Both the position numbers and the translations under genes were made by a program. The notes beneath the pieces are model-generated. The model was not told where the DNA came from. It searched no databases and was given only the letters and a program-made list of their open reading frames with translations. This document shows positions 39,996-42,135 of a DNA stretch of 64,000 bases, piece after piece. Within the stretch, counting starts at the first letter, position 1. Each line of letters starts with the position of its first letter. Source of the DNA: Candidatus Caenarcanales bacterium (GTDB lineage: Bacteria; Cyanobacteriota; Vampirovibrionia; Caenarcaniphilales; Caenarcanaceae); the NCBI GenBank assembly GCA_030065015.1, contig JASJDU010000001.1, positions 13,814-77,813 of the forward strand. Reading direction: 5' to 3'.

Positions 39996-40688
39996 ATGTC
40001 TGTTCGTACAGTAGCAAGAACAAATACATTCAATAATCAGATTGCAAGATCTACAAGTAGGAATGTTGCACCAAGCAATTCTAATGACACATTTACTCCT
40101 GGCCAAGATTCATCAAGAATCCCAGGCTTTGGTCAGGGAAATTCAGTTGTTAATAACAACAATTTAAATTTAGATGTTCCATTTGACATATTGGGGACTT
40201 CTAGAGCACTCTTAAACCCAAGAGTCATTCCAACAATACTTGAAAAAGCCGCTGCTTTAGATGCAACAGGTGGTATTGCTCCCGTAACAGCAGATGGAGT
40301 AGAAACAGGAGTTGTAGCTTCATCCTCTGCAGCAGGACTGTATGAAATTGGAGCAGCAACTGAAGGAAGCTTTAATTATTCTTCTAAAGTACTTGAAAAT
40401 ATAAATACAATACTTGGTTTTCTTGAAACCAATGATGTAAATTCATTTCAAGCCGCAATAAGACAAGGGGGCGGGCAAATCAGCAAGAACGAATCAGCTG
40501 AGCTGTTTAATCAACTCCTTAGGAATCAGGCTTTAATTAAAACAGCACTTGGGCAAGCTGTTCCAAGAGAAAGATTGAGGAATCAAAGGCTTCAAGCTGC
40601 TAATCAAAGAAGACAACAAAACAATCAAAAAACCGCCAACTTAGGTGAGCAGCCACAAATTAATAATGCCGGAGGACCAAGGACTTAA
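39996..40688 (+). CDS. Hypothetical protein, paralog A of a tandem three-gene family.
   Basis: 230 aa. Disordered N/S/T-rich N-terminus; conserved core 'LDATGGIAPVTA..G..TGV.ASS.A.GL..I', 'LETNDVN.F.A', 'NQALI.TAL'; C-terminus '..NNAGGP'. About 50% identical to paralog B over ~150 aa. Confidence 0.6.
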   Translation: MSVRTVARTNTFNNQIARSTSRNVAPSNSNDTFTPGQDSSRIPGFGQGNSVVNNNNLNLDVPFDILGTSRALLNPRVIPTILEKAAALDATGGIAPVTADGVETGVVASSSAAGLYEIGAATEGSFNYSSKVLENINTILGFLETNDVNSFQAAIRQGGGQISKNESAELFNQLLRNQALIKTALGQAVPRERLRNQRLQAANQRRQQNNQKTANLGEQPQINNAGGPRT

Positions 40689-40783
40689 GATTGGAATCTA
40701 GAGAGAAATTTAGTATATTCCATAAGATAAAACCTTAAACAAGATTTATTAGCATATGTATAAGTTATCCAACTTGTACTATC

Positions 40784-41479
40784 ATGGTTTCATCGATTTA
40801 TATAAATAATAACTGGGGAATACAAAGTTTCAGGAATACATCCCCAGGAGCATATTCAAATTCTGACAATAATCAGGTTTATACTGAAGATAATTTTGAA
40901 ACAGTTTCAAGCACCAGAGTACAATCTTTAGTCGATGGATCTGGAGGAATAAATGAGCCATTTGATATTAATCTAAGTGTTTCATCAATAGCAATTGAGT
41001 TAGCTGAAGATCCACAAGCTGTTGAAAAAATCATTAGAAGAGCGGCTAATCTTGATGCTACAGGTGGTATTGCTGAAGTAACAGCAAATGGATTGTCTAC
41101 TGGTGTTACAGCTTCTTCAACAGCATCTGGCCTTTTCGACATAACTCCTACAACAGTAGGCACATTTAATCCTGCCTCAAGAGCCTTGGATGCAATGAAT
41201 ACAATTATTGGATTAATCGAAACTAACGATGTAAATGCTTTTGCAGCAATTTTTGAGGAAGAAGGAGTAAGCATTTCAAAAGCAGAGTCTGCACAGATAT
41301 TTAATAGGCTTCAAAAAAATCAAGCATTAATAAGAACGGCACTTACACAAACAGTTGCAAGGGAAGGGCAAAGAAACACTGATTTACAGAGAGTAGCACA
41401 AGTTTCATCTGATAGAAGAAGTCGATCGGCAAATTTAGCCCAACCAAGACCAAATAATAATGCTGGAGGAGGACCATAA
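40784..41479 (+). CDS. Hypothetical protein, paralog B.
   Basis: 231 aa with the same core as paralog A ('LDATGGIAEVTANGLSTGVTASSTASGL', 'IETNDVNAFAA', 'NQALIRTAL') and C-terminal 'NNNAGGGP'. Confidence 0.6.
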   Translation: MVSSIYINNNWGIQSFRNTSPGAYSNSDNNQVYTEDNFETVSSTRVQSLVDGSGGINEPFDINLSVSSIAIELAEDPQAVEKIIRRAANLDATGGIAEVTANGLSTGVTASSTASGLFDITPTTVGTFNPASRALDAMNTIIGLIETNDVNAFAAIFEEEGVSISKAESAQIFNRLQKNQALIRTALTQTVAREGQRNTDLQRVAQVSSDRRSRSANLAQPRPNNNAGGGP

Positions 41480-41556
41480 TAAAATCAGAGGTTTCTGAAT
41501 AAAGAGTTGATTACTTAAGCAATATACAATATAGACAAATTGACAGAAGGATTGAG

Positions 41557-42135
41557 ATGACAACACTAAGCAACTTAGGTACAAATAGATTCAACTCGTT
41601 TGAAGATAGACTGTTGAATGACATAATGAAATTAACTCAGCCAGGCGGAATTGAGGCTGTATTTAATAAAGCTCAAAATATGTCACAGAGCACCTTTGAG
41701 AATAGTAACTTTTCAACGCCTACGGATGTTTTTGGGAATAGTGTTTCTCCCGGTAATCCGATACCATTCGGTAATTTTATAACTGATACGTATATTGGAA
41801 GAGATACTAAAGTGAAAAGTGACGCAATACAGCAAGAAAGAGAATATCTTAGGCAACTATATTCATTCTTAACAACAAATGATTACAGGGGAATAGCATC
41901 TCTATTAAAAGACAAGTTAAAGCTACCCGAATCTACTGCGAATCAGTTAGGTCTTGCAATATTTAATGCTCTTCAGCAAGCACAGCCATTGTTTTTAAGT
42001 GCACTAGAGCAGCAAGATCAAAGACTAGCAAGCACGCAAGACAACCTTAACACCTTAGGGAACCTAAGTAGTCAAAGGAAAAGACAAAACGATCAGGTAA
42101 TTAGCGAGATTGTTCAAAGTATAGGAAATGGATAG
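41557..42135 (+). CDS. Hypothetical protein, divergent paralog C.
   Basis: 192 aa. Shares only 'FLTTNDYRGIA' and 'IFNALQQAQ..' with the TND / IFN.L..NQ elements of A and B. The relationship is tentative. Confidence 0.45.
   Translation: MTTLSNLGTNRFNSFEDRLLNDIMKLTQPGGIEAVFNKAQNMSQSTFENSNFSTPTDVFGNSVSPGNPIPFGNFITDTYIGRDTKVKSDAIQQEREYLRQLYSFLTTNDYRGIASLLKDKLKLPESTANQLGLAIFNALQQAQPLFLSALEQQDQRLASTQDNLNTLGNLSSQRKRQNDQVISEIVQSIGNG

Follow-up and report, generated by a model that had tools for sequence, protein, structure and literature searches.

Three tandem genes and a convergent partner

We analysed a 64-kb stretch of DNA (the window) from contig JASJDU010000001.1 of a Candidatus Caenarcanales bacterium, and studied in it a module of three co-directional genes, A, B and C, and a convergent gene, D. 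Related modules are present at four other loci, called L001, L003, L004 and L009. A preliminary description of the window had proposed A, B and C as open reading frames (ORFs) of a new tandem paralog family, and all three were found at the positions given there, on the plus strand. The features of the module are the following.

39826-39995, plus strand: leader, non-coding, 5' of A, promoter and/or 5' untranslated region (5' UTR), conserved in comparison with L001
39996-40688, plus strand: gene A, ORF of 230 aa, A/B-type paralog
40257-40340, plus strand: Gly-rich LDATGGIAPVTADGVETGVVASSSAAGL block of A, spanning residues 88-115 and predicted to form a beta-hairpin insert that separates helix 2 from helix 3
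40784-41479, plus strand: gene B, ORF of 231 aa, A/B-type paralog
41557-42135, plus strand: gene C, ORF of 192 aa, C-type paralog
42143-43537, minus strand: gene D, 464 aa, convergent to C, the two stop codons being 7 bp apart; positional partner of the module

The NCBI entry 'hypothetical protein QNJ31_00290, Candidatus Caenarcaniphilales', from a metagenome-assembled genome, has exactly the sequence of protein A. B, C and D are the three locus tags that directly follow QNJ31_00290 in that series of entries.

Paralogy of A, B and C

Over 230 columns, A and B have 43% of their residues in common (BLASTP, E = 1e-49). For the ordered core alone (residues 63-216) identity is 49-51%, in agreement with the approximately 50% proposed earlier for this part, and it falls to 25% in the N-terminal 62 residues. 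The Smith-Waterman score of the pair was 405, versus 41 +/- 7 in composition-preserving shuffles (z = 50). Being 50 standard deviations above the shuffles, the similarity of A and B is not compositional, which settles a doubt that the preliminary description had itself raised. The motifs it reported, LDATGGIA.VTA.G..TGV.ASS, ETNDVN.F and NQALI[KR]TAL, are all seen in the A/B alignments, and TNDY and IFNAL are present in C.

Pairwise likeness between C and A of the same genome is weak (E = 0.009); between the A and C proteins of L001 it is stronger (E = 1e-9, z = 13.5). Profile-profile comparison of A/B with C by hhalign gave a probability of 91% (E = 1e-6) over 80 columns, and a longer alignment, pairing residues ~74-208 of A/B with ~26-171 of C, gave 88% (E = 3e-6) over 130 columns. 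C-type orthologs are found at L001, L003, L004 and L009, with identities of 27-67% across the five organisms. C had been described as a degenerate third copy. Instead, it is the member best conserved across organisms, and some 130 of its columns align to A/B. Judging from these alignments, C is a true, near full-length paralog with a different central loop. The alignments, together with the family and fold searches reported below, support the proposal of a tandem paralog family that comprises A, B and C and is not detectably related to any known family.

Selection and history

The ortholog of A in L001 is 68-71% identical to it. Between the window and L001, the ratio of nonsynonymous to synonymous substitution rates (dN/dS) was 0.118 for A and 0.123 for B, with dS near saturation. 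In the core, the proportion of nonsynonymous differences between these orthologs (pN) was 0.13-0.18, versus 0.6-0.85 for synonymous ones (pS). Evolution is two to four times faster in the first 62 residues than in the core; these residues are the least conserved part (25-53% identity), with pN still below pS. The diversifying selection suggested earlier thus does not hold: dN/dS is approximately 0.12, which indicates purifying selection, and only the N-terminus is fast. Identities by codon position follow the coding pattern, with position 2 above position 1 and both far above position 3. A, B and C are real, conserved, expressed-looking protein genes. A 131-aa antisense ORF (40879-41274, minus strand) lies wholly within gene B; it is most likely spurious, because codon-position conservation fits the frame of B.

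In a neighbour-joining tree of 180 ungapped columns, the single A/B-type gene of L003 grouped with the B clade (92% bootstrap), and the supports for an old A/B duplication were 92% and 100%. Since the L003 gene falls in the B clade, the A/B duplication is older than that split, both copies having been kept since.

A conserved gene array

The five loci are arranged as follows.

Window: co-directional A, B, C; convergent D
L001: co-directional A', B', C'; convergent D'
L003: one A/B-type gene, then a C-type gene; convergent gene of 272 aa
L004: gene of 298 aa, A/B-type gene P0006, C-type gene; convergent gene of 290 aa
L009: A/B-type fragment, C-type gene; convergent fragment of the 272-aa type

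The layout is common to all five: one to three A/B-type genes, one C-type gene, and a convergent gene that closes the array. A/B-type and C-type genes co-occur strictly and in fixed order (5/5 loci). Spacers among the co-directional genes measure 70-100 bp, and the convergent gene ends 0-11 bp from the C-type stop. The 298-aa protein of L004 (L4_298) matched the family with an hhalign probability of 46% (E = 2e-4) and is possibly a third paralog at that locus.

D and its L001 counterpart D' occupy the same position and are 56% identical. At L003, L004 and L009 the D slot holds a different convergent gene, of 272-290 aa; the 272-aa and 290-aa proteins are mutually related (E = 4e-13), and homology of D to them was not demonstrable (hhalign 0.7%). 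Neither D nor the 272/290-aa proteins showed detectable homology to the A/B/C family, and gene D had no Pfam, NCBIfam or PDB match. Compared with the window, L003 has a helix-turn-helix (HTH) gene that is 70% identical and an rpe gene that is 76% identical; from these two shared genes, L003 is a relative with local synteny.

After the module, L003 (4701-5381, plus strand) and L004 (8862-9815, plus strand) each have a gene whose protein combines a disordered Ser/Thr/Gln-rich N-terminus with a C-terminal part containing Cys...His. The two proteins have no detectable similarity to each other and no counterpart in the window. That of L004 gave a weak, sub-threshold CHAP match (E = 0.013).

The upstream leader

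The leader of A (39826-39995, approximately 170 nt) is 77-84% identical to positions 622-795 of L001. As controls, the A-B and B-C spacers were at shuffle level, and third codon positions were 39-45% identical, so that conservation of the leader exceeds the neutral level. The repeat GGG(G)TT(T) occurs six times in the leader. Both sequences are predicted to fold into the same two hairpins, in which A/G differences leave the base pairs intact; the z-score of the minimum free energy is only -1.1. It had no match in Rfam. With a covariance model of both sequences, the leader was found in the window and in L001 only, with no second copy in the window and none in L003, L004 or L009. A scan of metagenomes with 20-mers returned two matches, both in an unrelated high-GC organism, which we judged to be due to chance. 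By its sequence conservation, the leader is a constrained regulatory region, which could be either a structured 5' UTR or a promoter that carries operator sites.

Predicted architecture and conserved residues

Structures were modelled with AlphaFold2. In the model of A, built from five sequences and of low confidence (predicted local distance difference test, pLDDT, 52), residues 1-62 are disordered and are followed by two short helices (65-87), a loop, four helices (128-216) and a short Gly/Pro tail. A hairpin is predicted at 94-109, with strands 94-99 and 102-109. The model of C (pLDDT 75, predicted TM-score 0.68) is all-helical, with helices at 15-26, 31-44, 77-107, 110-121 and 125-190, the last being 66 residues long, and a loop of about 30 residues before the helix that starts at 77. 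The helices of A/B and C match one to one in the profile alignment. The predicted family architecture is a fast-evolving disordered N-terminal tail followed by a five-helix domain.

The LDATGGIAPVTADGVETGVVASSSAAGL block is invariant in A/B-type orthologs and degenerate in P0006. C-types do not have this LDATGG hairpin block, and carry a different loop of about 30 residues in its place. In the model, two helices meet at the ETNDVN motif, which suggests a role for it in helix capping. Both TND and LDATGG are lost in the distant members of L004; this loss points to clade-specific structural features rather than catalytic sites. The residues invariant across the family are mainly structural, namely Gly, Leu, Phe, Ala and the TND helix cap; the last helix adds Gln, Arg and Asn. 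They form no constellation of the His, Cys, Ser-His-Asp or metal type.

A/B-types have a long, polar and basic last helix whose net charge is +3 to +7 and in which the pattern RE..RN..L is kept; in C-types this helix is neutral or acidic. The isoelectric point (pI) of the whole protein is unconstrained (9.85 for A versus 4.30 for its ortholog, and 4.7 for B). The proteins are rich in Asn, Gln, Ser, Thr, Ala and Gly. None of A, B and C contains Cys; Trp is lacking from A and C and occurs once in B, in the N-terminal tail. As proposed earlier, there is no transmembrane segment: the maximum 19-residue Kyte-Doolittle mean is approximately 1.0, and the N-terminus is not hydrophobic.

The C-terminal ending

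A conserved C-terminal motif, NNAGG(G)P, had been proposed from the endings of window A (...INNAGGPRT) and window B (...NNNAGGGP). It is confined to these two proteins. Orthologs and distant members of the A/B-type end otherwise (QNGGGNQPIG, NNGGGPGR, QSGGGGAA, GEQPKAA, AKPQQK), and C-types end in SIGNG, SIGQG or SFGQGG. What A/B-types have in common is [NK]L[GA].QP at the end of the last helix, then a short Gly/Gln/Asn-rich tail.

The convergent proteins (window D, L001 D', the 272-aa protein of L003, the 290-aa protein of L004 and the L009 fragment) all end in ..[FL].QP.., as GFKQPQLG, GLKQPEIG, IKFGQPP, IKFSQPS and EFKQPQS. Comparing sequences post hoc, ..QP may be a C-terminal element common to convergent and A/B-type proteins.

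Rarity and distribution

The preliminary description had asked whether the family occurs elsewhere. It is extremely rare, with about 12 sequences in about five metagenomic organisms. Queried with A, a word index of 5.8 billion clustered proteins returned A itself and one protein 71% identical to it; the A/B profile added B, the ortholog of B and one further protein. With the same profile, HMMER was run exhaustively over 1.84 billion representatives; this gave four family clusters and two repeat proteins, and revealed P0006, a distant 190-aa A/B-type member in L004 (E = 1e-14). The C-type profile found five proteins altogether. Combined, the word-indexed and exhaustive searches amount to five A/B-type proteins, five C-type proteins and the two repeat proteins.

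These last, P0008 and P0007, were rejected as relatives, as a short motif is matched repeatedly and the score is inflated by the repeats. P0008 (E = 5e-4 in the exhaustive search) is a Big_3 protein, and P0007 matches 14 unrelated Pfam families. Big_3 (PF07523) shares with the LDATGGIA block a short LD.TGG..VT..D/N G strand-turn-strand motif; the likeness extends over 15-20 residues only and is inflated by six repeats, the Ig domain of some 70 residues does not fit A/B, and there is no Pfam match to Big_3.

No relatives were found in two scans of GTDB species-representative genomes, in JGI metagenome contigs or in IMG/VR. As far as these searches reach, the family is undescribed and restricted to a lineage of Caenarcaniphilales-type non-photosynthetic cyanobacteria.

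Comparison with known families and systems

A, B, C and D had no threshold-level match in Pfam, NCBIfam, PHROGs or PADLOC. When all 12 family members were scanned against Pfam at E <= 5, no family was matched by more than two members. Sequence-profile searches of the PDB gave no significant match, and Foldseek, run with both models against the PDB and with the C model against viral structures (BFVD), gave nothing below E = 0.2.

Several known systems resemble the module in part. WXG100/ESAT-6-like and PE/PPE proteins are likewise small helical paralogs encoded side by side, with no signal peptide and with flexible tails, and they work as heteromers; for the working of the module this is an analogy only. 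Membership of the WXG100 family or of a type VII secretion system fails on motif, size and ATPase. The module proteins have no WxG or YxxxD/E and no Pfam match to the family. They are about twice as large, with five helices, whereas WXG100 proteins are helix-turn-helix proteins of about 100 aa. No FtsK/SpoIIIE-type (EssC/EccC) ATPase or other gene of such a system is found in the window or the related loci.

The tripartite toxins of the ClyA superfamily (AhlABC, SmhABC, Nhe, Hbl) share with the module the arrangement as three tandem helical paralogs, and some of their components have a hairpin insert between helices, as A/B-types do. However, their components are of approximately 270-450 aa, compared with an ordered part of approximately 150-175 residues in the module, which has no hydrophobic head or beta-tongue. 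The Foldseek match of the C model to AhlC was non-significant (E = 1.1, probability 0.21, TM 0.27). Membership was rejected on size, hydropathy (~1.0) and fold, and there was no Pfam HBL/ClyA match.

The last helix weakly resembles polar Gln/Asn-rich coiled coils (coronavirus spike HR1 and geminin, E = 0.15-0.5), over about 55 residues. This likeness is non-significant and reflects composition, not homology; by analogy it suggests that the last helix is an oligomerising polar helix.

Three further memberships were rejected: that of flagellar or type III axial proteins (no Pfam match, an N-terminus that is the least conserved part, no flagellar genes in the window), that of secretion substrates with a C-terminal signal (NNAGG(G)P being limited to window A and B), and that of phages or mobile elements (no PHROG match, no IMG/VR relatives, no BFVD fold with E < 0.2).

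Discussion

The analysis establishes that the genes are real and paralogous, evolve under purifying selection and keep a conserved order, and that their proteins match no known family and have no membrane segment. From sequence, gene order and models we infer, beyond this, co-expression, hetero-oligomer formation, a non-enzymatic role and the cellular location of the A/B/C paralogs. They would be soluble subunits, produced together, whose helical domains would assemble them into a hetero-oligomer with a structural, scaffolding or adaptor function, from which the fast-evolving N-terminal tails would extend as flexible appendages. The role would be non-enzymatic because the invariant residues are mainly structural and because TND and LDATGG are lost in L004. 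The reading also draws on the paralogy, on the array shared by five loci with its strict co-occurrence and fixed order, on purifying selection in the helical core next to a fast N-terminus, on the long retention of both A/B copies, on the matching helical architectures predicted for the two types, on the lack of transmembrane segments and on the conserved leader. We hold this reading tentatively, at somewhat less than an even chance. Several observations weigh against it. There are hairpins in the intergenic spacers and a clear terminator-like site in the spacer between the A/B-type and C-type genes of L003, so that the genes may be transcribed separately. Small helical proteins with no detectable homology do not prove a new fold or function, and the model of A is weak (pLDDT 52). 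Only about 12 family sequences are known, which makes co-variation unusable. Finally, a composition with no Cys or His, hardly any Trp and almost no internal Met also fits exported filament or effector proteins.

Export, already raised in the preliminary description, is an unlikely alternative. The paralogs would then be substrates, either effectors or extracellular structural subunits, that leave by a non-Sec route through the disordered N-terminus or the C-terminal tail. They have no transmembrane segment or evident signal peptide and yet an extracellular-like composition, and their N-termini are Ser/Thr/Asn-rich, disordered and poorly conserved, as type III secretion signals are. A/B-types have the loose [NK]L[GA].QP and Gly-rich tail, and D and the 272-type proteins have [FL].QP. 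The neighbour genes in L003 and L004 encode similar disordered N-termini and possibly, from the weak match of E = 0.013, a CHAP-like domain, and flagellar genes have been reported in the order Caenarcaniphilales (PMC4040986). However, NNAGG(G)P is not conserved, C-types end differently, and there is no recurrent weak Pfam match to families of secretion substrates. Neither across the 64-kb window nor at any of the other four loci does the module have a secretion, flagellar or pilus gene beside it, with the exception of a toxin gene of the two-partner secretion (TPS) type, which is not linked to the module in the other loci. Nucleic-acid binding or regulation through the Arg/Gln-rich C-terminal helix of A/B-types would accord with the charge of that helix (+3 to +7 in all A/B-types), with its conserved RE..RN..L and with the conserved leader RNA or DNA directly upstream; we consider it improbable, as pI is unconstrained, the helices of C-types are neutral or acidic, and no HTH, ribbon-helix-helix or other such family was detected.

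Still less credence goes to a miniature multi-component alpha-helical toxin, pore-forming or membrane-active in the manner of ClyA, with a Gly-rich hairpin that inserts in the membrane. Three tandem helical paralogs, two with the hairpin insert and one lacking it, recall such a system, and AhlC is among the non-significant Foldseek matches of the C model. Against this, neither folds nor sequences matched significantly, components of the ClyA family are about twice as large as these proteins, no hydrophobic stretch is present, and the L004 member has a degenerate hairpin block. It is equally hard to regard the module as cargo of a prophage remnant, a defence island or another mobile element: a tRNA-Ser gene and a HepT/MNT pair adjoin it and toxin-antitoxin-type genes lie nearby in L003, but PHROG and PADLOC matches, an IMG/VR relative and a viral fold match are all missing, no integrase or recombinase is nearby in surroundings of housekeeping genes, GC equals that of the flanks, and the position next to the HTH gene and rpe is syntenic in the window and L003. 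The notion that the likeness of A, B and C is compositional, or that the ORFs are not genes, could appeal to the low-complexity N-termini and the AT-rich genome. It is refuted by the shuffles and the codon-position pattern, the orthologs elsewhere and the low dN/dS argue against it as well, and we give it virtually no weight.

A broader form of the hetero-oligomer reading takes in all parts of the module. A/B-type, C-type and convergent genes together would specify a new hetero-oligomeric assembly of Caenarcaniphilales-type bacteria, controlled by a structured 5' leader RNA and possibly exported or surface-located, with recognition through ..QP and the Gly/Gln tail. We regard this combination as quite unlikely.

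Caenarcaniphilales are uncultured non-photosynthetic cyanobacteria whose cell biology is little known, and among approximately 15 billion predicted proteins the family has no relative beyond a handful of related organisms. The fixed order, the purifying selection and the lack of outside relatives make the module a candidate for a lineage-specific cellular structure or interaction system. Such orphan families are common in poorly sampled lineages; this one is new by exclusion, no family or fold having been assigned, and a new mechanism is not thereby demonstrated. Its practical value is a testable family definition, with two subfamilies, a conserved array, a conserved leader and a narrow distribution.

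Genomic surroundings of the module

GC content is 33-40% across the whole window, and that of the module equals that of its flanks. The window contains housekeeping genes (ribosomal proteins, aroA, accC, EF-G, mnmE, glycogen enzymes) and an SLH-OprB porin of a kind typical of cyanobacteria. On the 5' side, A has as neighbours a HepT/MNT toxin-antitoxin pair and a tRNA-Ser gene; on the 3' side, C is followed by the convergent D, a small HTH-like gene and rpe. The HepT-like/MNT (nucleotidyltransferase) pair (39050-39660, minus strand, and 38882-38970, plus strand) adjoins tRNA-Ser(UGA), and the corresponding region of L003 has several toxin-antitoxin-type genes too. The HTH-like gene (43902-44216, minus strand) encodes a 104-aa protein with weak similarity to Rrf2/CasR-type HTH proteins (E = 1e-3 to 3e-3). 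Its 70% identical counterpart stands beside rpe in L003, so that it is a conserved neighbour.

A CdiA-like polymorphic toxin gene (45138-50363, minus strand, 1741 aa) is unrelated to the module. Its product carries a TPS secretion domain at the N-terminus and an Ntox44 toxin domain at the C-terminus, together with a PT-HINT domain. No TpsB-type transporter gene adjoins it, the gene upstream being mnmE, and the 160 bp before rpe hold no plausible immunity ORF. A link between this toxin gene and the module was rejected, as the toxin is missing from the other loci.

Between D and the HTH gene lies a GC-rich island of approximately 130 nt (about 43700-43835) in a genome of 35% GC. It contains three strong hairpins, for example TTAAGGGCC-GGCGGCA-GGCCCTTAA, and has a folding z-score of -2.1 on the minus strand. 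With no Rfam match at E <= 1, the island may correspond to a small RNA as yet uncharacterised or to several clustered terminators.

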